64,000 bases of DNA from Chrysomallon squamiferum (lineage: Eukaryota > Animalia > Mollusca). Under the pieces are notes generated by a model, which worked only from the letters and a program-made list of their open reading frames with translations, was not told where the DNA came from and ran no database searches. A program made the translations under genes and the position numbers. The DNA lies in assembly GCA_012295275.1 (NCBI GenBank), contig CM022675.1:5208001-5272000 (forward strand), read 5' to 3'. Shown piece after piece: positions 48,207 to 64,000 of this stretch (the stretch's first letter is position 1; every line of letters starts with the position of its first letter).

Positions 48207-48536
48207 GAAAGAGAAAAAGACAGAGAAAGAGAGAGAGTGAGTGTGAGTGAAAGAGAAAGACAGAGAGACAGAGAGAAAGACAGAGAGAAACAGAGATAGA
48301 AAGACAGAGACAGAAAAAAAGAGCTAGAGAGAAAGACAGACAGAAAGAGAGAAAGAGAAAGAGAGAAAGACAGAGTAATAATAATAATATTTCATAAATG
48401 TTTATAATTTTATATATATATATATAAAATTAAAAACATTAGGTACAGAAATACTGAGTTGTAGAGAGAAACAGAAAGAGTGAGATATATTGGTTTTTGA
48501 TTTTTTTTTTTTTTTTATGCACACATACTAAATTAA

Positions 48537-48615
<79 letters not shown>

Positions 48616-48837
48616 TACGATGATGATGATGATGAAGTTAGTTATGAATACACATACAATTCATTCATGATGCAATACTTTAAAGCAGTTATTCATTGGA
48701 CAAGATGGTTTCTTTGTCCTTACCATATAAATACATCGTGAGATGTTGTGTTTTATTCTAAACACGTCAAACTGTGTGAGGACAAAGCTTCTTTTTTGAG
48801 TGTCATAAGAAACAAGGTAGGTTCACGCTATATTACT

Positions 48838-50415
48838 TCAGTTAATATATTTGTAATCATTTTTGTACGTTTGCTTGCAGCTGATTTTGACAACAGAAGC
48901 CAATTCCCTGGCTTGAAGGCAACTTTCTTGTGTTGCCACTGCGATATATCTCTTCATGGAAGGCGTGTCTACTTGCCGCAGGTATTTGATGGAAGACCCG
49001 AATGTCTTCTTTTCTATGGAGGTAAGTATCTCCTGCACAACTCTGTGGTAATTCACACTGATTTTAAGATACTTAAAACCTCCTAATTTACCACGATCGG
49101 TGCTACCGCATATTTTGTCCGATTTGTCTTTATTCGACAAAACCCATTCCACTCATTGCCTTTCGTTCTTTGCTTCACTGGTCGTGATCAGAGTCTCTGT
49201 AACATCTGTAAACTTACACAAGTTTTCGTTTAGTTTTAACTTCTTTTGCTTTTGTTTTGGTTGCTACGTGTCCTCGTCGTCCTCGGTGTCTCTTGCTCTA
49301 GACTCTTGTTAATTCTGCAGACCTGACTGATTCCTCTCGTTTCAGCCGTCGCAGGCCTCGACTGTCTCTCTCCGGTGTCTCATTCATTTAACCAGTAAGC
49401 TTCTGAACCCGGAACACGTTTTTATAGACAGGTGCATGAGAAGTCATCAACGGTTGAGAGTTTTCCCATGGATCGTAAGTTTGCGTGAACTGACTGACGG
49501 GCGTTGTCTGCCTCGACGTAGATGGTATCGCTTCTGTAGACGTACATCTGAAACGACTTTGTCTTGTTAAATTAGTTGGTCGTCTGAAGTGTTGGTCTTG
49601 ATCATCATCATCTAGAAATTCGTTCACTGCACGTTTTTGAGTGAAGCCTTTCGGAGCAGGAGGCATCCGTGCCGTCCTGTTCCAAACGTCTGGCTTTCCC
49701 CAAACATCTGCCTCTGTCATGATCGCCACGCCTGACACGTCTTCTTGTAGGAGATCGTCAATTTTAGTAGATTTCTCTGTGTCCGAGCAGTCTGGAGGTA
49801 GCTGTATCCATATTTTGCCCAAGAATTTTGAATTGCTACCTAAAAATATGTACCCTTTGGAAGGCCTTTTTAGATAACGCAGGTAATCTTTGATGTTTCT
49901 TATCTTTTGGACCCTAACACGGTAACAGCTTTCTCTGCTGCGTTGACGACGCAACCGAGTTCTCTGTCGTGTACCGTGTGGCACATTCCCGTCTTACTGA
50001 GGACTGCGTGAAGGTGCTGGAACGGCGTGCAAGAATCGGGAGACCTGTCGGACGAGTGAACGACTAACAGAGACTGTCTTTTAACCATTTCGTTCAGGTT
50101 GTAGATGTTTTCGTTATAGTTGCTGCCACTAAAGAAGGTGTTCACTTTGTTCAGATACTCTTTGATTTCCATGGAAGAATTTGAAGGAATTCAATCTTTG
50201 TGGACCAGCGTGTCACTATCTTATATTCTAATTCACGAGAATCGGCGTAAATAGAAAAAAAGTCTGCCGTATTTGTCATATCTGTTGTTTAGGGATTTAT
50301 CCATGGGAGAAATATATCTTCCATTGAATAGTTGTTCAAGTTCTTCATTATACTCCGCTGACAAACCATTAACTTGTAATATTATACAACACCAATGTTC
50401 GTTAAGATTATCCAT
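48838..50415 (-). pseudogene. Rep/NS1-like HUH endonuclease, frameshifted and 3'-truncated
   Basis: Successive ORF pieces 50233-50415, 49900-50172, 49388-49984 and 48838-49152. HUH motif LVVH...QHLHAVL at 50008-50016, followed after one frameshift by the Tyr motif KDYLRYLKRP (~49865-49890). No Walker A / SF3 helicase motif is visible. Confidence 0.7.
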
Positions 50416-50569
50416 GACTATTTACCAATGAACCGATACTCGGTGACGTTGATGCTGATGATGATAATATGAACTTAAAATAAATGCGATAGGATTATGA
50501 AATATGTCCGTTGGCTGGTTATGCTTCTTTATAACGTTTTCTTAATATTGTCTTCTTTTCTATGGCTTT

Positions 50570-51566
50570 ATTTCTGGAACAAATACAAGTAGGAGCAGTT
50601 AATCTTTTATACGGAAGCGATTTTTCTGTATCGGATTCGATTTTTTGTTCTTATTTTCGTCGGAGGTTAACATGTCCTCATCGAATCGATAGTCAATGGG
50701 ACACAACTGTTTTATTCTGCCTCCTTCGACGTTTCTACCCATCCCTAGTTCTATGCAATCATAAGGATCTTTGTCTTCCACATGAAAAGAAGGATGGGTC
50801 GATTGATCTTTGTCGTTGTTTCCAGAAAAAATTCCAGCCAACGATCTAATTAAAAGTATATCACCTTCTGTAAGGTCGTAGCCCAATAGCAACCATCGCA
50901 TAATTTCATTCAATGCATACGCGAACGGTTATCGGGCACAGTATTAAAATGAACAGACTGATTAAATATTTTGTTATAATCTGTGACGTGAGGATCGACG
51001 ACTCCTTTATCATCAGGTATTCTATCTTGGTTATTGATTAACAGCCAATATATATACTGAGGTAGATCGTGAGCTTGCTTTTTAGGAATTATCTTATATT
51101 GATTTAAGTAATCTTTCTTAACGACATTAGGATCAGACGTAGGAGACTTAAATACGCGGTTAAAATTTTGCATAGTGATATTAAATTCAAAGACTTTCTT
51201 CCATTTAGTAAAATCTAGAAACACACGAGACAACCACGTCTAGACTTGGTTTCCGTCTACAGACCAAAGCCAAACGTTGCCCGAATCGTTTGTTATTCTA
51301 TCATCGTCTAAAAAGTGGACGATGTCGCATCCGAACAAATCTGTTTTAACGTCATGTTTAAAATCGAGACCAGGAAGCGTATTTCTAGTTTTAAACAGAT
51401 CGAATCTCAAACTCTTATATTCTAATATAAATTCAGATATATTTTGTTCATTGTTTCTAGGAATTTCTGGATAAATGAGATCTATATTGGTTAGACCAGG
51501 TTGATATACACTACGTAACATATCTTCGTATCTCTACTTCCAAAAATAAACATTTGATTCACTCAT
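50570..51566 (-). pseudogene. Uncharacterised viral ORF(s) between capsid and Rep
   Basis: The ATG at 51566 overlaps the putative capsid stop (ATGA). 51566-50910 is one frame broken by two TAGs (51534, 51240) and abuts ORF 50599-50913. No family recognised. Confidence 0.6.
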
Positions 51567-52793
51567 TTCGGACGAGGCGAAGGGTGAGGATGGTAACGGT
51601 TTGAAGAAGCAGAGCCAGACACTGTGCCACCAGGAGGTGAGTATTGACGAGGCTCCGTGGTGCTTCAGGCGCGTATTCTCCTGTTGCAGGGTTGGATGAC
51701 GGTTCGTTTCCGTGGTCAGTTCGAGTGTAAACCATCCTGTTTTGGAAACGATATTTTCTCCTACGTTTGGGAAATGCAAATTTAGGATTGACTGCGTAAC
51801 CGGCTACTTCTCTAATCTTAGATAATTCGCGATACATGTAATCGAACGTCTAATGAATTCGAAAGTGATAAAACATTTTACGAAAATGCACGCCGCTTGG
51901 ACCACCGGACTATCTCTACCGCAATAGAGACAAGAGTTTGATTAAAAACTTTGTACAAAGACTTCGTACCACCAAAAGATTTTCCTTTGAAAATGTCTTC
52001 TAACGTTCCGATATCACTGATATCGTAGTCTTTAATATTATGCAAGTAATGACAAATGGGATAAAAATTTCCGTACATTCCCAAGTATGAGTAAATTTCG
52101 AAGTCATGGTATTAATATCGCCGATGAGGAATAAAAATACCTCTTGGAATTTGTAATGAATGTCCAACAATTGACATTGGTTTTTGTTAAAAAAAAACGT
52201 CTGGTAGTTTTAATACTACTCTGGGCAGAGTAGGATTTTGTTGATTGACTGCCCACTGATTGGTGAAATTACTACTGATATCGAACCTTTTGTTGTTTTT
52301 AAACTTATCGACAACGAAATCTCCCCATTCGTGATTATAATCACAAACAGAGCAGCTCGGGTTCGCGTACGAAATCCGTGCGCATCACTTGAATGTCACT
52401 TATGGAAGTGACTTCTTCGGTCGTTAAAGTACAATCTAATATTTCGAAACCTATATTAACGAGTCTGAAAGCTTGAGCTTCTTGCCACTGAATGGGAATT
52501 ACGGAAGCTTTAGGATAGTCGTAAGGTAAAATTTGAAAACCTTCGTCCACTGTTTTATTAGTTTTATCGTAATAAGTGGTAGTTTCGGCATTATCGTGTA
52601 CATACCATTGAAATATCCGATGGAATGTCTTCCGAAACACTCTGTCTTGATCTTTGTTAAACAGTGGTCCTTGCGGCATACATTCCGTGTTAGGAACAGA
52701 AGTAGTTCTATTTTTACCATCGTTAATTCCTTCGCTCCCCCAGCTACTACCGTTACCGCTACTGGTTCCTTCAGCTCCACTACCTCCCGACAT
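51563..52793 (-). pseudogene. Parvovirus-type single jelly-roll capsid protein (VP), frameshifted
   Basis: Gly/Ser-rich N-terminus (MSGGSGAEGTSSGNGSSWG), then RKTFHRIFQW, GFQILPYDYPKASVIPIQWQE (cf. parvoviral PW...SPxDWQ) and FRLVNIGFEI. After frameshifts come FLIKL and CIFVKCFITFEF (late beta-strand-like) and a basic C-terminal stretch PKRRRKYR. Confidence 0.75.
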
Positions 52794-52855
52794 TTCAAAA
52801 TTTCAGTTAACACAGACTAAACAACGATACTTACTACAACAATCGCTTACATGCA

Positions 52856-52960
52856 AAGATGGCGAATTTAAAAATGTCTGCCTATTTATAAGATTTGTCA
52901 CGTGACTGCAAATCACGTTCTCGCAAGATCTCAGTTTATATCGCATATGCGAGAAATAAA
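52856..52960 (-). promoter_or_regulatory. Putative Pol II promoter of the viral element
   Basis: On the minus strand: palindrome TCGCATATGCGA, E-box GTCACGTGAC (52897-52906), TATAAATAG (52882-52890) and YY1-type CGCCATCTT (52856-52864), all upstream of the capsid ATG at 52793. Confidence 0.65.
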
Positions 52961-53170
52961 AAGAGAAGCGAGCGTAGCGTCATTCATATGAACAATTAAC
53001 AGTTTAGATTAAATTCGAGACTTTAAATCACACTTTTATGTACTGCTTTTAAATCTTATTTTACTAATACGGCAAGCGATCGTACGGGCAAGTGTTAAAG
53101 GTCGATTACACGCAGGCTTAGTGAATGACCTAAAGCACACAGTGCTTTTCGTATGGTTCTGGTACCTCTG

Positions 53171-53313
53171 TAGTGTATAAATATATATTAAATGTATAAA
53201 TATATATTAAACAGCGAGATAGAAACAAAAACATATATGTATATAGACAGATATATCTGACAATCTACCTTTTTATTTGATTAGCTTATTTTAGTTCATT
53301 TAATCATTTAATG

Positions 53314-53369
<56 letters not shown>

Positions 53370-53862
53370 GTTATTTTTTTATAATTATTATTATTATTGT
53401 TGTTGTTGTTATTGTTGTCGTTGTAGCACTTACTAATATAATAAAACGAGAAACACGTTGTGGACGGTGACTCTTCCAGTCATTACAGAGGCTCGCTTAC
53501 CCAAAGCTGCCTGTGTATAATAACTGGGTATGTAACAAATGTTAATAGTTCTCACGTGTTTAGTATCTTTTGTTAGACGGACTGAAACAGGTTTCTTCGT
53601 AATGTGACAAGTTGTCATCGCTATAAATGATAAATACAGAAATAAACTTTTATTAAAAGACGGGGTTGGTCTGATATTTAGTAATAAACATCACTTGGAA
53701 CAAAATTGGCAAAACGCAATCATTTTTGATGCTAACAGCCACCCACGTATTTAGTAACATTTTTCTTTCAGCTTCCACTCCATATAATTTAATATCATGA
53801 AAACGATCAGTGTTTCTTCTACAACCATTGTTTAATACGAAACACGTAAATAATAATACTAA

Positions 53863-53898
<36 letters not shown>

Positions 53899-54991
53899 AA
53901 TACTACTAATAATAATAATAATAGTAATAAATGTGTATAGGCACCACTTGGAATTTGACTTCAGCGTGCTGTCAATGTCAACTGAAAGTAAAACATAGAC
54001 AGACACAAAAGCAATTTCTTTGAGCCGAAAAGTTTATATTTTCTTTAAAGTAAATTAACAAAAAAAATAACAAAACATAATCATTATTATCTTTAGTAGC
54101 GGTAGAATTAAAAGGATATGTGGTGGTTGTAGTCAGTGGTAATAATGGCAACTGTTATTTTGTATCATTATTTTCTTTTTTGTTATTAATATGTTGGTGA
54201 TTTTTTTTTTGTATTTTTTTTCTTATTTTTTTTTCTAATTGTGGACAACATAATATTTCTCTTCACAGATTCAGAATGTCTTCTGTTGGTAGCAGTGTCA
54301 CTAGTAGGAATGTATGGAAGTATGACGTTAAGTGTGACGGTTTGGAACCTGCTCTTCATCACTGTCTTCTGAGAGTTTACATCGTGTTCTAATTATAAGC
54401 TGTTCAGGTATTTATGTTAAAACTATTAGTTTAGTTTCCAATAAATTGATAGTTTAATTAATAGTTTTATTTAATAAACACAGGGTTTTTTTTTTTTTTT
54501 TTTTTCTAGTTGTGTTTTACACTCTGGTTCGTAATGTTGCATGGAATCACATGATATATTGCTTACAAAGAGAAAACAGAAGAAAACAAAGGTTAATGTT
54601 TTACTATTGTGATTATTATTATTAGTAGTAGTAGTATCAATACTATTGTTAGTAGTAGTAGTAATAGTAGTATTTATATAAAAACTTGAAGGACACCCTA
54701 ATAGATATCATTTCAGGCACTATTTAAATAAATAAATAAATAAGTTAATAAATTAATAAATAATAAAAGAAGAAAACAAACATCAGCATTTCACTTGTTT
54801 TATCGCGTGAGAGAATGTTGTTCATTAGTTGGCTGTAGTAGGCTGTCAAAATGAAAAAAAAAAAAAAAAAAGAAAAAGAAATCTGCAGAAAATTAAAGTT
54901 AAATGATAAAGGAATATCGATATTTTATGACATTCTACCCCGTAACTTTCATTGATGTGCTGACTTTTCTTTTTCATCATCATTATTACTT

Positions 54992-55077
<86 letters not shown>

Positions 55078-56277
55078 TTTATTGTTATTATTTTTATTGT
55101 TCTTCTTTTTCTTCTTCTTCTTCTTCTTCTTATTATTATTATTATTATTGTTATTTTTGTTATTGTTATTATTATTATATTTGCTTGCTTGTTTTGCTAT
55201 AGTAAAGATTGTTTTTTTAGGTTTTTTTTGTTGTATTTTTGTATTTTCTCAAAAACGTGTTTGGTTATGTATTGATTAATATTTTATATTGAGTTTCTTT
55301 ACTGAATAAAGCTTGTAGCAATGACTCTCCTGTGATTTGTTTTATTTTATAAGTCGAAATTATTACTTGCATATTAATTCATGTTTACGTAATTATTGTC
55401 ATTACTCTATGCTGGAATACAAATTACCTCTCTGTTTTGCTCTTCCTGTGTGTTGTTATTTATTTTCTTCTCATTTGTGTTTCTGGACATTCTGGAGGTT
55501 CGGTAAAAATCCGTGGCGGAGGAAAAGCTTTCGAATTTCCGTCGTCATTATTCGTGGTGCTATTTCCAAGATGGAGGATCTGCTTTAACTGTTGCTATAG
55601 TTTCATCACACACCCATCTGATTAACAATATATATATTTTTTTTAATTTCTCGTGTCGATTATTTGATTATTAGTCCTTATTTTTTCAATATTAAATATA
55701 TTATTATTATTGTTATTTTTATTGTTATTGTTATTTTATCATTATTATTATTATTTTCTTATTAATATTCTTGGTATTGTCGTATACAAAACAACTATAA
55801 CTCAACAACATTATAATTATATATATAGAAAGTGTTACAGAAAAAACTAATGCGAACATTTGCTGAATTTTTGATGGCATCATAGCACGTGACAGCACAA
55901 CCAATCAGCAAGGATTACACATCATCACTCGATATCTAGTGATAGAATTTCATATCGTACATCACACCTCAATTTCTTATCACTAAACATTCTTCATTCA
56001 GTAAAATCATACTTCACTTCATGGTAATGGATGAAGAACACTTCTTCAAAATTTTCACTATACTTGTCTGCAGTGACTGAATAGATGCATTGAAAATATT
56101 ACACAGGGAGAAACAAATAAGTTGAAAAACCAGAGAAAAAGTAACAAGAAAGAGAAAGTTCCTTTCATTTTAAAACAACTTGTAACTGTAATGAGAATTA
56201 TTAACATGTCATTCCAATACGGTTGATCAAATCATATAAGAATATTTTGCGATGATTTATACTTATGACGTTACAAC

Positions 56278-56375
<98 letters not shown>

Positions 56376-57001
56376 CATAACGATAATGATGATACTAATT
56401 TTAATATAATAATAATAACAACAACAACAAAAAAAAAACAATAACACTAACAATAATATTTGTCTGAAAGAAGTAAATAGGAATTAGTTTAATATTTTTA
56501 GTTTTAATATTTGTAAAGAGAGGCGAGTGACGTATTTCATAAATCCATGATGTATACCGCAAGTAATTCTCTATCAGCAGCAGAAATTAGACAAATTAAT
56601 GAAAATGTCCCGAAAAGTAAAAACAAGAAAGAGACAGCTTCGTTCCTTCTACCTGACCTTTGTGTCATTTACAGCCAGTATCTCTCTTTTACAAAGAGAA
56701 ATTAGACAAATAAAACAGAATAAAAAATCAAAAAGAGAGATAACTTAATTTCTTCCCACTTACCTCCCTTGTTGTAATTAAGTACTCACTGCGTAATGGT
56801 TTGGTTATCAACATGTAATATTACAGTTTCCTTCAACTATCAATATTTAGTGATTTGACGGCGTATTTCATCACCTCGATCATGACTCTGTAAATATTAT
56901 TTATTTATTAATTTATTTAATAATTTATTTAATTTAATATGTCTATCTTTTATTCATCTTGCCGACATCATGTGATAACATTAAAAACTTAATAAATGAT
57001 C
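53171..57001 (+). repeat. Segmental duplication unit, copy 2 (carries SRCR pseudo-exons)
   Basis: Direct near-identity to 776-4817. Confidence 0.95.
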
Positions 57002-57201
57002 NNNNNNNNNNNNNNNNNNNNNNNNNNNNNNNNNNNNNNNNNNNNNNNNNNNNNNNNNNNNNNNNNNNNNNNNNNNNNNNNNNNNNNNNNNNNNNNNNNN
57101 NNNNNNNNNNNNNNNNNNNNNNNNNNNNNNNNNNNNNNNNNNNNNNNNNNNNNNNNNNNNNNNNNNNNNNNNNNNNNNNNNNNNNNNNNNNNNNNNNNNN
57201 N
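57002..57201. other. Assembly gap (200 N) at the axis of the inverted duplication
   Basis: Run of exactly 200 N. Confidence 1.
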
Positions 57202-57983
57202 ATACATTATTTTATAAATTCAGCGATGTTTTATCTTTACTATTTAGACGTACATTTTTTAAACTTTTTTATTATTTTTTTTTTTTGTGAGTTGAGGGGT
57301 TATTATGTTTTCCCCTGGATTTGATTTGTGATCATTTATTAAGTTTTTAATGTTATCACATGATGTCGGCAAGATGAATAAAAAATAGACATATTAATTT
57401 AAATAAATTATTAAATAAATTAATAAATAAATAATATTTACAGAGTCATGATCGAGGTGATGAAATACGCCGTCAAATCACTAAATATTGATAGTTGAAG
57501 GAAACTGTAATATTACATGTTGATAACCAAACCATTACGCAGTGAGTACTTAATTACAACAAGGGCGGTAAGTGGGAAGAAATTAAGTTATCTCTCTTTT
57601 TGATTTTTTATTCTGTTTTATTTGTCTAATTTCTCTTTGTAAAAGAGAGATACTGGCTGTAAATGACACAAAGGTCAGGTAGAAGGAACGAAGCTGTCTC
57701 TTTCTTGTTTTTACTTTTCGGGACATTTTCATTAATTTGTCTAATTTCTGCTGCTGATAGAGACTTACTTGCGGTATATATCATGGATTTATGAAATACG
57801 TCACTCGTCTCTCTTTACAAATATTAAAACTAAAAATATTAAACTAATTCCTATTTACTTCTTTCAGACAAATATTATTGTTAGTGTTATTGTTGTTTTT
57901 TTTTTGTTGTTGTTATTATTATATTAAAATTATTATTATCATTATCGTTATGATTATCATTATGATTATCATTATTATTATTA

Positions 57984-58056
<73 letters not shown>

Positions 58057-59243
58057 GTTGTAAGGTCATAAGTATAAATCATCGCAAAATATTCTTATAT
58101 GATTTGATCAACCGTATTGGAATGACATGTTAATAATTCTCATTACAGTTACAAGTTGTTTTAAAATGAAAGGAACTTTCTCTTTCTTGTTACTTTTCTC
58201 TGGTTTTTCAACTTATTTGTTTCTCCCTGTGTAATATTTTCAGTGCATCTATTCAGTCACTGCAGACAAGAATAGTGAAAATGTTGAAGAAGTGTTCTTC
58301 ATCCATTACCATGAAGTGAAGTATGATTTTACTGAATGAAGAATGTTTAGTGATAAGAAATTGAGGTGTGATGTACGATATGAAATTCTATCACTAGATA
58401 TCGAGTGATGATGTGTAATCCTTGCTGATTGGTTGTGCTGTCACGTGCTATGATGCCACCAAAAATTCAGCAAATGTTCGCATTAGTCTTTTCTGTAACA
58501 CTTTCTATATATATAATTATAATGTTGTTGAGTAATAGTTGTTTTGTATACGACAGTACCAAGAATATTAATACGAAAATAATAATAATAATGATAAAAT
58601 AACAATAACAATAATAATAATATATTTAATATTGAAAAAATAAGGACTAATAATCAAATAATCGACACGAGAAATTAAAAAATATATATATATATTGTTA
58701 ATCAGATGGGTGTGTGATGAAACTATAGCAACAGTTAAAGCAGATCCTCCATCTTGGAAATAGCACCACGAATAATGACGACGGAAATTCGAAAGCTTTT
58801 CCTCCGCCACGGATTTTTACCGAACCTCCAGAATGTCCAGAAACACAAATGAGAAGAAAATAAATAAAACACACAGGAAGAGCAAAACAGAGAGGTAATT
58901 TGTATTCCAGCATAGAGTAATGACAATAATTACGTAAACATGAATTAATATGCAAGTAATAATTTCGACTTATAAAATAAAACAAATCACACGAGAGTCA
59001 TTGCTACAATCTTTATTCAGTAAAGAAACTCAATATAAAATATTAATCAATACATAAACAAACACGTTTTTGAGAAAATACAAAAATACAACAAAAAAGC
59101 CTTAAAAAAACAATCTTTACTATAGCAAAACAAGCAAGCAAATATAGTAATAATAACAATAACAAAAATAACAATAACAATAATAATAATAATAAGAAGA
59201 AGAAGAAGAAGAAAAAGAAGAACAATAAAAATAATAACAATAA

Positions 59244-59302
<59 letters not shown>

Positions 59303-60362
59303 TAATAACAATAATAATACAAGTAATAATGATGATGAAAAAGAAAAGTCAGCACATCAATGAAAGTTACGTGGTAGAATGTCATAAAATATCGATATTC
59401 CTTTATCATTTAACTTTAATTTTCTGCAGATTTCTTTTTCTTTTCTTTTTCTTTTCTTTTTCCTTTTTCATTTTGACAGCCTACTACAGCCAACTAATGA
59501 ACAACATTCTCTCACGCGATAAAACAAGTGAAATGCTGATGTTTGTTTTCTTCTTTTATTATTTATTAATTTATTAACTTATTTATTTATTTATTTAAAT
59601 AGTGCCTGAAATGATATCTATTAGGGTGTCTTTCAAGTTTTTAAATAAATACTACTATTACTACTACTACTACTATAATAATAATAACAATAGTAAAACA
59701 TTAACCTTTGTTTTCTTCTGTTTTCTCTTTGTAAGCAATATATCATGTGATTCCATGCAACATTACGAACCAGAGTGTAAAACACAACTAGAAAAAAAAA
59801 AAAAAAACCTGTGTTTATTAAATAAAACTATTAATTAAACTATCAATTTATTGGAAACTAAACTAATAGTTTTAACATAAATACTGAACAGCTTATAATT
59901 AGAACATGATGTAAACTCTCAGCAGACAGTGATGAAGAGCAGGTTCCAAACCGTCACACTTAACGTCATACTTCCATACATTCCTACTAGTGACACTGCT
60001 ACCAACAGAAGACATTCTGAATCTGTGAAGAGAAATATTATGCTGTCCACAATTAGAAAAAAAAAAATAAGAAAAAAAATACAAGAAAAAAAAATCACCA
60101 ACATATTAATAACAAAAAAGAAAATAATGATACAAAATAACAGTTGCCATTATTACCACTGACTACAACCACCACATATCCTTTTAATTCTACCGCTACT
60201 AAAGATAATAATGATTATGTTTTGTTATTTTTTTTGTTAATTTACTTTAAAGAAAATATAAACTTTTCGGCTCAAAGAAATTGCTTTTGTGTCTGTCTAT
60301 GTTTTACTTTCAGTTGATATTGACAGCACGCTGAAGTCAAATTCCAAGTGGTGCCTATACAC

Positions 60363-60396
<34 letters not shown>

Positions 60397-60871
60397 TACG
60401 TGTTTCGTATTAAACAATGGTTGTAGAAGAAACACTGATCGTTTTCATGATATTAAATTATATGGAGTGGAAGCTGAAAGAAAAAGGTTACTAAATACGT
60501 GGGTGGCTGTTAGCATCAAAAATGATTGCGTTTTGCCAATTTTGTTCCAAGTGATGTTTATTACTAAATATCAGACCAACCCCGTCTTTTAATAAAAGTT
60601 TGTTTCTGTATTTATCATTTATAGCGATGACAACTTGTCACATTACGAAGAAACCTGTTTCAGTCCGTCTAACAAAAGATACTAAACACGTGAGAACTAT
60701 TAACATTTGTTACATACCCAGTTATTATACACAGGCAGCTTTGGGTAAGCGAGCCTCTGTAATGACTGGAAGAGTCACCGTCCACAACGTGTTTCTCGTT
60801 TTATTATATTAGTAAGTGCTACAACGACAACAATAACAACAACAACAATAATAATAATAATTATAAAAATA

Positions 60872-60904
<33 letters not shown>

Positions 60905-61040
60905 TTAAAAACATAAATGATTAAATGAACTAAAATAAGCTAATCAAATAAAAAGGTAGATTATCAGATATATCTGTCTATATACATATATGTTTTTGTT
61001 TCTATCTCGCTGTATATCTATTTATTTAATATATATTTAT
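57202..61040 (-). repeat. Segmental duplication unit, copy 3 (inverted)
   Basis: Reverse complement of 776-4945 / 53171-57001, with scattered substitutions. Confidence 0.95.
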
Positions 61041-64000
61041 ACACTACAGAGGTACCAGAACCATACGAAAAGCACTGTGTGGTTTAGGTCATTCACTAAG
61101 CCTGCGTGTAATCGACCTTTAACACTTGCCCGTACGATCGCTTGCCGTATTAGTAAAATAAGATTTAAAAGCAGTACATAAAAGTGTGATTTAAAGTCTC
61201 GAATTTAATCTAAACTGTTAATTGTTCATATGAATGACGCTACGCTCGCTTCTCTTTTTATTTCTCGCATATGCGATATAAACTGAGATCTTGCGAGAAT
61301 GTGATTTGCAGTCACGTGACAAATCTTATAAATAGGCAGACATTTTTAAATTCGCCATCTTTGCATGTAAGCGATTGTTGTAGTAAGTATCGTTGCTTAG
61401 TCTGTGTTAATTGAAATTTTGAAATGTCGGGAGGTAGTGGAGCTGTAGGAACTAGTAGTGGTAACGGTAGTAGCTGGGGGAGCTAAGGAATTAACGATGG
61501 TAAAAATAGAACTACTTCTGTTCCTAACACGGAATGTATGCCGCAAGGACCACTGTTTAACAAAGATCAAGACAGTGTGTTTCGGAAGACATTCCATCGG
61601 ATATTCCAATGGTATGTACACGATAATGCCGAAACTACCACTTATTACGATAAAACTAATAAAACAGTAGACGAAGGTTTTCAAATTTTACCTTACGACT
61701 ATCCTAAAGCTTCCGTAATTCCCATTCAGTGGCAAGAAGCTCAAGCTTTCAGACTCGTTAATATAGGTTTCGAAATATTAGGTTGTACTTTAACGACCGA
61801 AGAAGTCACTTCCATAAGTGACATTCAAGTGATGCGCACGGATTTCGTACGCGAACCCGAGCTGCTCCGTTTGTGATTATAATCACGAATGGGGAGATTT
61901 CGTTGTTAAGTTTAAAAACAACCAAAGGTTCGATATCAGTAGTAATTTCACCAATCAGTGGGCAGTAAATCGGCAAAATGCTGCTCTGCCCAGAGTAGTA
62001 TTAAAACTACCAGAATTTTTTTAACAAAAACCAATGTCAATTGATGGGCATTCATTACAAATTCCAAGAGGTATTTTTATTCCTCATCGGCGATATTAAT
62101 ACCATGACTTCGAAATTTACTCATACTTGGGAATGTACGGAAATTTGTTATCCCATTTGTCATTACTTGCATAATATTAAAGACTACGATGTCAGTGATA
62201 TCGGAACGCTAGGAAAACCTTTTGGTGGTACGAAGTCTTGTACAAAGTTTTTAATCAAACTCTTGTCTCTATTGCGGTAGAGATAGTCCGGTGGTCCAAG
62301 CGGCGTGCATTTTCGTAAAATGTTTTATCACTTTCGAATTCATTAGACGTTCGATTACATGTATCGCGAATTATCTAAGATTAGAGAAGTAGCCGGTTAC
62401 GCAGCCAATACTAAATTTGCATTTCCCAAACGTAAGAGAAAATATCGTTTCCAAAACAGGATGGTTTACACTCGAACTGACCACGGAAACGAACCGTCAT
62501 CCAACCCTGCAACAGGAGAATACGCGCCTGAAGCACCACGGAGCCTCGTCAATACTCACCTCCTGGTGGCACAGTGTCTGGCTCTGCTTCTTCAAACCGT
62601 TACCATCCTCACCCTTCGCCTCGTCCGGAATGAGTGAATTAAATGTTTATTTTTGGAAGTAGAGATACGAAGATATGTTACGTAGTGTATATCAACCTGG
62701 TCTAACCAATATAGATCTCATTTATCCAGAAATTCCTAGAAACAATGAACAAAATATATCTGAATTTATATTAGAATATAAGAGTTTGAGTTTCGATCTG
62801 TTTAAAACTAGAAATACGCTTCCTGGTCTCGATTTTAAACAACGTTAAAACAGATTTGTTCGGATGCGACATCGTCTACTTTGTAGACGATGATAGAATA
62901 ACAAACGATTCGGGCAACGTTTGGCTTTGGTCTGTAGACGGAAACCAAGTCTAGACGTGGTTGTCTCGTGTGTTTCTAGATTTTACTAAATGGAAGAAAG
63001 TCTTTGAATTTAATATCACTGTGCAAAATTTAAACCGCGTATTTAAGTCTCCTACGTCTGATCCTAATGTCGTTAAGAAAGATTACTTAAATCAATTTAA
63101 GATAATTCCTAAAAAGCAAGCTCACGATCTACCTCAGTATATATATTGGCTGTTAATCAATAACCAAAATAGAATACCTGATGATAAAGGAGTCTTCGAT
63201 CCTCACGTCACAGATTATAATAAAATATTTAATCAGTCTGTTCATTTTAATACTGTGCCCGATAACCGTTCGCGTATGCATTGAATGAAATTATGCGATG
63301 GTTGCTATTGGGCTACGACCTTACAGAAGGTGATATACTTTTAATTAGATCGTTGGCTGGAATTTTTTCTGGAAACAACGACAAAGATCAATCGACCCAT
63401 CCTTCTTTTCACGTGGAAGACAAAGATCCTTATGATTGCATAGAACTAGTGATGGGTAGAAACGTCGAAGGAGGCAGAATAAAACAGTTGTGTCCCATTG
63501 ACTATCGATTCGATGAGGACATGTTAACCTCCGACGAAAATAAGAACAAAAAATCGAATCCGATACAGAAAAATCGCTTCCGTATAAAAGAGATTAACTG
63601 CTCCTACTTGTATTTGTTCCAGAAATAAAGCCATAGAAAAGAAGACAATATTAAGAAAACGTTATAAAGAAGCATAACCAGCCAACGGACATATTTCATA
63701 ATCCTATCGCATTTATTTTAAGTTCATATCATCATCAGCGAGTATCGGTTCATTGGTAAATAGCCATGGATAGACTCCGAAAGGCTTCACTCAGAAACGT
63801 GCAGTGAACGAATTTCTAGATGATGATGATCAAGACCAACACTTCAGACGACCAACTAATTTAACAAGACAAAGTCGTTTCAGATGTACGTCTACAGAAG
63901 CGATACCATCTACGTCGAGGCAGACAACGCCCGTCAGTCAGTTCACGCAAACTTACGATCCATGGGAAAACTCTCAACCGTTGATGACTTCTCCTGCTGC
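61041..64000 (+). mobile_element. Endogenous parvovirus-like element, copy 2 (inverted; runs off the window)
   Basis: Reverse complement of 53170-49430. Capsid remnant 61424-62633 has an extra early TAA, the unknown ORFs span 62630-63628, and a ~750-bp deletion at ~63773 removes the HUH region. Confidence 0.85.
61262..61361 (+). promoter_or_regulatory. Putative viral promoter, copy 2
   Basis: GTCACGTGAC 61311-61320, TATAAATAG 61327-61335 and CGCCATCTT 61353-61361, all conserved with copy 1. Confidence 0.65.

Follow-up and report, generated by a model that had tools for sequence, protein, structure and literature searches.

The window analysed here, a stretch of 64,000 nucleotides (nt) from Chrysomallon squamiferum (contig CM022675.1 of assembly GCA_012295275.1, positions 5,208,001 to 5,272,000), carries on its minus strand the remains of a viral element of about 4.5 kb. 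We put at roughly 85% the probability that this element is the broken remnant of a parvovirus-type virus, likely integrated in the germline, with a capsid-first gene order that is shared by intact, free-standing relatives and is likely native. Because the same order is seen in nine of nine such relatives, and the window matches both their capsid protein (VP) and the HUH motifs of their NS1, the order is read as native rather than as a permutation that arose on integration. The element likely records an undescribed parvovirus lineage with a reversed gene order. Its principal parts are these:

48650..53170, minus strand: whole endogenous viral element, copy 1, about 4.5 kb, delimited by composition, contigs of sequencing runs and homology of its parts; left edge uncertain between 48640 and 48700
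52885..52904, minus strand: likely capsid promoter predicted by motif scan, with a CACGTG box 111 nt and a TATA box 97 nt above the VP ATG
51563..52793, minus strand: VP pseudogene of the parvovirus-type jelly roll, with several frame switches (phmmer, family profile and tblastn pieces)
50599..51566, minus strand: pseudogene of the second open reading frame (ORF2), about 1 kb, with its ATG at 51566, two in-frame TAG codons and a frame switch near 50920; the true end may be near 50530
49388..50415, minus strand: NS1 pseudogene, N-terminal part, with HUH motifs II and III followed by an acidic S/T-rich stretch (lineage NS1 profile)

The element stands out from its surroundings by composition, with a GC content of 0.39 and an observed/expected CpG ratio of 1.19 (48700-53170) relative to 0.30 and 0.76 in a comparison stretch (1-48000); the scaffold around it is AT-rich and rich in microsatellites. 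All of its coding traces lie on the minus strand. An initial annotation had described an island ordered TATA promoter, capsid, about 1 kb of further reading frames and HUH gene, all on one strand, and composition, motif scan and profiles bear this out. The order of its "ORFs" stands, but they are pseudogene pieces with in-frame stops and frame switches, every gene of the element being broken.

The evidence that carries the gene order comes from relatives. A metagenome scan gave 48 pattern matches, of which nine were confirmed (L001-L009), all of them host-free contigs of 2.2-4.6 kb from two assemblies; profile scans of IMG/VR and of prokaryote genomes confirmed no further relative. All nine have VP, ORF2 and NS1 in that order on one strand, with a VP of about 370-400 amino acids (aa) and an ORF2 of 222-321 aa. 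NS1 is whole (570-602 aa) in five and there possesses both an HUH domain and an SF3 helicase; a fold-back interrupts it in one contig, and three contigs end inside it. A small 3' ORF is seen in the longer contigs and is complete in three. Six of the contigs measure 4.1-4.6 kb, some with fold-back ends. The genes are tightly packed, the VP stop lying 2 nt from the ORF2 ATG in eight contigs and the two genes overlapping by 8 nt in L008, while ORF2 overlaps the start of NS1 in every case, so that there is no room for a telomere between the cassettes. Since the VPs are 33-92% identical (NS1, 24-73%; ORF2, 15-78%), several distinct viruses keep this order. The layout that the initial annotation had proposed to look for in metagenomes is thus common to all nine relatives, in line with its suggestion of a fossil from an unclassified lineage with a different layout.

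ORF2 changes much more rapidly than VP or NS1, as L001 and L002 illustrate with VPs that are 89% identical and ORF2 products that are 34% identical, and it likely encodes a host-interaction protein. The relatives' ORF2 has no Pfam match, and an Atlas search with the ORF2 of one relative returned none. Directly after the VP stop, eight of the nine contigs (L001-L007, L009) carry GTATG, which supplies the ORF2 start and resembles a splice donor.

The NS1 of the relatives is of parvovirus type. Pfam Parvo_NS1 is matched above cut-off in all three proteins scanned (E 1e-14 to 1e-18), and AAV (adeno-associated virus) Rep40 is matched at E 9e-16. A model of one relative's HUH domain, with a mean pLDDT (predicted local distance difference test) of 83.6, finds its best matches among NS proteins of unclassified Parvoviridae, with template-modelling (TM) scores of 0.73-0.74 and E of 1e-15 to 7e-13; these values apply to the relative and not to the window piece. 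Because intact relatives carry a full parvovirus-type NS1, the genome is a parvovirus-type one with its cassettes reversed, and not a parvovirus capsid joined to a foreign Rep. The intact relatives have the NS1 and the capsid expected of Parvoviridae but depart from the family in not having NS on the left. In a distant NS1 relative, P0032, the Walker A-like motif is degenerate relative to the other seven rows.

The fossil is tied to this lineage through its capsid. Capsid pieces are recognised by tblastn in at least three frame segments (52790-52344, 52351-52187 and 51914-51843), and the full-length relative P0016 and its kin align to the window as three collinear pieces that include the last strand region (51914-51843). 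The 3' end of the gene was placed by eye, at a TGA that overlaps the next ATG. A HMMER scan (phmmer) with the window VP half returned eight matches among 1.84 billion representatives, with a leading pair at E 1e-13; their sources are ENA and Logan contigs as well as the Mactra antiquata genome. A VP profile built only from seven free contigs matches the window at E 1.1e-12. In turn, the profile of the VP family matches PDB entry 9NEK at E 2.2e-13, followed by AAV-type capsids at 5e-4; the Parvo_coat match of one member, P0003, falls below cut-off (E 5.5e-4). At the level of sequence, the VP family is shown to be related to the chapparvovirus capsid and to have a parvovirus-type jelly roll, as the initial annotation had predicted. 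A 150-aa N-terminal VP piece had no match in Pfam, PDB (phmmer), IMG/VR, a word-index search or Atlas, where window pieces by themselves gave no informative match in general, and no match to the PLA2 family was found in the VPs of the two relatives scanned.

Several VP homologs lie on long sequences. P0006 (KAL4222221.1), annotated as a hypothetical protein, is on a 37-Mb Mactra antiquata sequence, which suggests molluscan hosts for part of the family. Two VP copies that are 80% alike apparently share one 160,688-nt ENA contig, and others are on contigs of 80-105 kb (P0016, P0022, P0012-P0015). The VP copies on large contigs suggest further multi-copy insertions in other hosts.

Upstream of VP, the window has a TATA[AT]A match at 52890 above the ATG at 52793, and a TATA box lies 72-94 nt above VP in all five relatives examined. 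The palindrome TGACGTCA is found 164-207 nt above VP in four of the five contigs examined (L001, L002, L005, L006), and the octamer ATGCAAAT upstream of VP in two contigs, the window having its CACGTG box instead. We take these motifs to be a cyclic AMP response element (CRE), an octamer and an E-box.

The HUH gene of the window opens at an ATG at 50415 and has three in-frame stops in its first 170 codons. The motif II region (50082-49996) and the motif III region (49921-49820), the latter in another frame, follow in the right order; with the lineage NS1 profile (eight rows), motif III scores 14.4 bits, a value that 0 of 300 shuffles reached. An NS1 profile from five contigs finds 49942-49814 as the best of 1710 whole-window tiles (E 8e-4). 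The window thus appears to carry an HUH endonuclease region of the lineage's NS1 type. No Helitron match was found in Pfam on the pieces scanned, and folding the HUH piece of the window from its sequence alone gave no usable model (pLDDT 33).

Downstream and between the genes, three further features can be listed:

50528..50572, minus strand: AATAAA (at 50572) then TATAAA (at 50533), a candidate poly(A) signal of the VP/ORF2 unit and a candidate NS promoter, both consensus matches only
48841..49388, minus strand: broken frames, 0.55 kb 3' of the HUH gene, either a diverged helical region of NS1 or a small 3' gene
48752..48757, minus strand: candidate 3' poly(A) signal AATAAA, by consensus only

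In the window, ORF2 occupies the same position as the variable ORF2 of the relatives, and VP and ORF2 meet in a 4-nt overlap of stop and start, taking the VP end placed by eye. Homology of the N-terminal part of ORF2 to the relatives failed shuffle tests; it is plausible that similarity has been lost, because ORF2 is so variable among relatives (15-78%). Three assignments made by eye likewise failed the shuffle test and were rejected: an NS1 helical bundle placed in 49390-48840, likeness of 49152-48841 to ORF4, and a lead-in to Walker A near 48715-48780.

A number of observations weigh against this reading. The gene order is unseen for P0016, P0022 and P0015, the nearest VP relatives of the window; a 14-row VP tree places the window with these three (97/95), on a long branch and away from the free contigs, and its VP is only about 25% identical to that of L001. 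ORF2 of the window has no Pfam match and does not match the ORF2 profile of the relatives, and a spacer separates it from NS1 where the relatives have an overlap. The motif II match is marginal (1.2 bits, reached by 3 of 300 shuffles), and no significant match to the helical part of NS1 or to the 3' ORF (ORF4) of the relatives was found in 48841-49388. Profile scans found no SF3 helicase in the island or in the whole window, so that the standard classification marker is missing and the fossil cannot be filed by SF3; copy 2 of the element leaves the window before the helicase position. As for the relatives, eight of the nine contigs come from one assembly, and four of the nine have fold-back ends typical of amplification artefacts, so that the assemblies are imperfect. 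None of the eight ends or near-ends tested folds into a terminal hairpin better than shuffles, the contig ends being incomplete. Finally, the HUH model is weakly matched in the PDB: Foldseek places AAV origin-binding domains highest, though without significance (best E 0.07, for that of AAV2), VIA-align reaches a Z of only 5.1-5.9 in top rows that include plasmid RepB, circovirus Rep and AAV5 Rep, and the HUH profile has no sequence match in the PDB.

The host setting of the element is one of nested duplications. A second copy of the element lies nearby:

61047..64000, plus strand: copy 2, inverted, 98-99% alike over ungapped arms and cut by the window end

Copy 2 does not have 49657-50408 (the HUH part), and the two copies have about 3.7 kb of right host flank in common; copy 2 could represent either a paralog or a second haplotype. 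The copies differ by 8 synonymous and 21 non-synonymous changes in 605 codons, differences that appear neutral, as without selection. A 6.6-kb inverted duplication (50409-63772) is centred near an N gap (57002-57201), and another N gap (576-775) is bordered by the host flank in its third copy (776-4946); both may reflect haplotypes scaffolded together. SRCR-domain exons at 45753-46046 and 42213-42347 (Pfam E 9e-10, plus a second match) stand amid these nested host duplications, and a fragment of eukaryotic large-subunit ribosomal RNA (rRNA; 66-575) adjoins the N gap near the left end. Judged by the SRCR exons and its repeats, the scaffold would be that of an invertebrate.

The stretch is present, whole or in part, in 11 of 13 listed sequencing runs, nine of organism A in three studies; in X10 and X11, the runs from organism B, 5% of its words are present. 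The contigs of four runs were compared with 48400-53170, and every run yields numerous contigs that depart from the window by substitutions and indels, so that several copies exist, not all broken alike. Variant records number 126-302 per run, over all identity classes, in the three runs that are DNA-type or unlabelled; each of these extends to one common left end of the element, where one contig has a different flank. Contig depth in the runs ranges from 350 to more than 1000 and is not a copy number. In the RNA run X7, 24 of 30 bins are covered, by contigs, which is no proof of transcription. A 1864-nt contig of run X1 agrees with the broken form, with four other letters and two gap letters.

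Could such an element have spread by itself? A helicase-less element moved through the host by its own HUH nickase, in the manner of a Rep-only rolling-circle transposon with capsid remnants, would be consistent with the many variant contigs per run, the common left end and the one contig with a different flank there. The shared host flank of about 3.7 kb points instead to segmental duplication or two haplotypes, the copies differ in a neutral-looking way, copy 2 is without the HUH part, and contig depth gives no copy number. Such mobilisation seems unlikely here, and is in any case partly compatible with an integrated capsid-first virus.

It is also quite improbable that the lineage has circular genomes, with the capsid-first order doing no more than marking the point of opening. 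The search for terminal hairpins found none and the ends of the relatives' genomes are incomplete, both as a circle would allow. No terminal direct repeat, however, was found in any of the nine contigs (themselves incomplete), and the NS1 is of parvovirus type. All nine contigs start no more than about 340 nt above VP or within its first codons, and the fossil starts about 375 nt above it, which random opening would not yield. Together, the shared start near VP and the lack of a terminal direct repeat favour a linear genome, although no hairpin was recovered. The roughly 4.5 kb of the element is within the range of about 4-6 kb for Parvoviridae.

An ordinary NS-VP parvovirus might have been integrated as a concatemer or circle, such that a VP is followed by the NS of the neighbouring unit. 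Parvoviruses usually form fold-back and concatemer intermediates, and the missing helicase end of NS1 is what a cut through a permuted unit could give. This explanation, which had been offered in the initial annotation as a permuted intermediate, is largely refuted and now very improbable: all nine free contigs show the same order with genes abutting or overlapping, and the island has no conspicuous internal repeat or hairpin. Lastly, the mis-assembly of a free virus into a gappy host scaffold, to which the rRNA fragment and the inverted duplication around N gaps lend some colour, is scarcely credible given that all genes are broken, that both copies join the same host flank and that the X1 contig agrees with the broken form, though X1 may be the source sample.

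Returning to an integrated virus with a native capsid-first order, we incline, without much conviction, towards a fuller account: an undescribed, subfamily-level lineage of linear parvoviruses with swapped cassettes, whose fast-evolving second gene, coupled to the capsid stop, would be a host-range or capsid-associated factor, and which is represented both by free viruses and by helicase-less fossils, present in multiple copies, in the genomes of invertebrates, a bivalve among them. On the simpler reading of an integrated capsid-first virus, the live form would have a linear, single-stranded DNA genome of about 4.5 kb, to judge from established parvovirus biology, replicated by NS1 nicking and unwinding through a rolling-hairpin mechanism as in other parvoviruses, and packaged in a T=1 capsid of a roughly 400-aa VP that presumably has no PLA2. 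Motifs suggest that the upstream TATA promoter would drive a VP/ORF2 message, that ORF2 may be started by re-initiation beside the VP stop, and that NS1 may depend on an internal promoter or on splicing of a message. The fossil likely stems from one germline integration between host repeat blocks, its helicase half lost or never carried, followed by decay and later duplication together with host flank. The fossil itself cannot make virus.

A monosense lineage with this order would break a stated rule, since the available portion of a 2024 review (PMC11357303) describes all parvoviruses with NS as the left-hand and VP as the right-hand cassette, and it raises the testable question of how NS1 could be made early with the upstream promoter given over to the capsid. 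Through the fossil, orphan metagenome contigs are linked to a germline of animal type. The variable ORF2, which belongs to no known family, is a candidate gene for interaction with the host. No capsid-first monosense parvovirus was found in the literature searched, which comprised text without figures or supplements and few subscription papers; the accessible parts of PMC9896142, PMC9001828, PMC6950620 and PMC11822035 do not mention one.

As regards known systems, the window and all nine relatives place VP upstream of NS1 on the same strand, and so depart from the NS-left arrangement of Parvoviridae. The closest predicted fold to the lineage's HUH domain is that of NS proteins from unclassified Parvoviridae sp. 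(A0A7D3UWE9, A0A7D3UD78 and A0A7D3UI69; TM 0.73-0.74), which are only 18-20% identical to it; a capsid-first layout may have been drawn without comment for those viruses. Among named groups, the chapparvoviruses (Hamavirinae) offer the nearest likeness. 9NEK, the best PDB match to the capsid, is the capsid of Syngnathus scovelli chapparvovirus, according to the part of PMC12115719 available, and chapparvoviruses have the order NS-NP-VP and are known as endogenous copies in invertebrates, according to the available text of PMC6631224. Like them, the present lineage has a short VP without a PLA2 match, a genome of about 4-4.5 kb and endogenous copies. Unlike them, it has VP first, as well as an ORF2 and a 3' ORF without family match, and whereas the chapparvovirus VP starts at the jelly roll, the present family has some 35-45 profile positions before the part aligned with 9NEK.

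Other non-standard layouts are also known. In the available portion of PMC13426907, which recognises six Parvoviridae subfamilies, the Swazi bat megaparvovirus lineage has a 6.4-kb genome with a PLA2 gene, an unknown gene, NS1 and VP. As far as that account goes, it is like the present lineage in being unclassified, in its hama-like capsid and extra cassettes, and in endogenous copies (complete ones in the megaparvovirus lineage) that point to a host group; it still has NS1 before VP, unlike the present lineage. Finally, Acheta domesticus segmented densovirus has NS and VP on two segments, going by the accessible text of PMC10267136, and to that extent offers a second non-standard layout, from which the present lineage differs in having both genes on one molecule, in reversed order.

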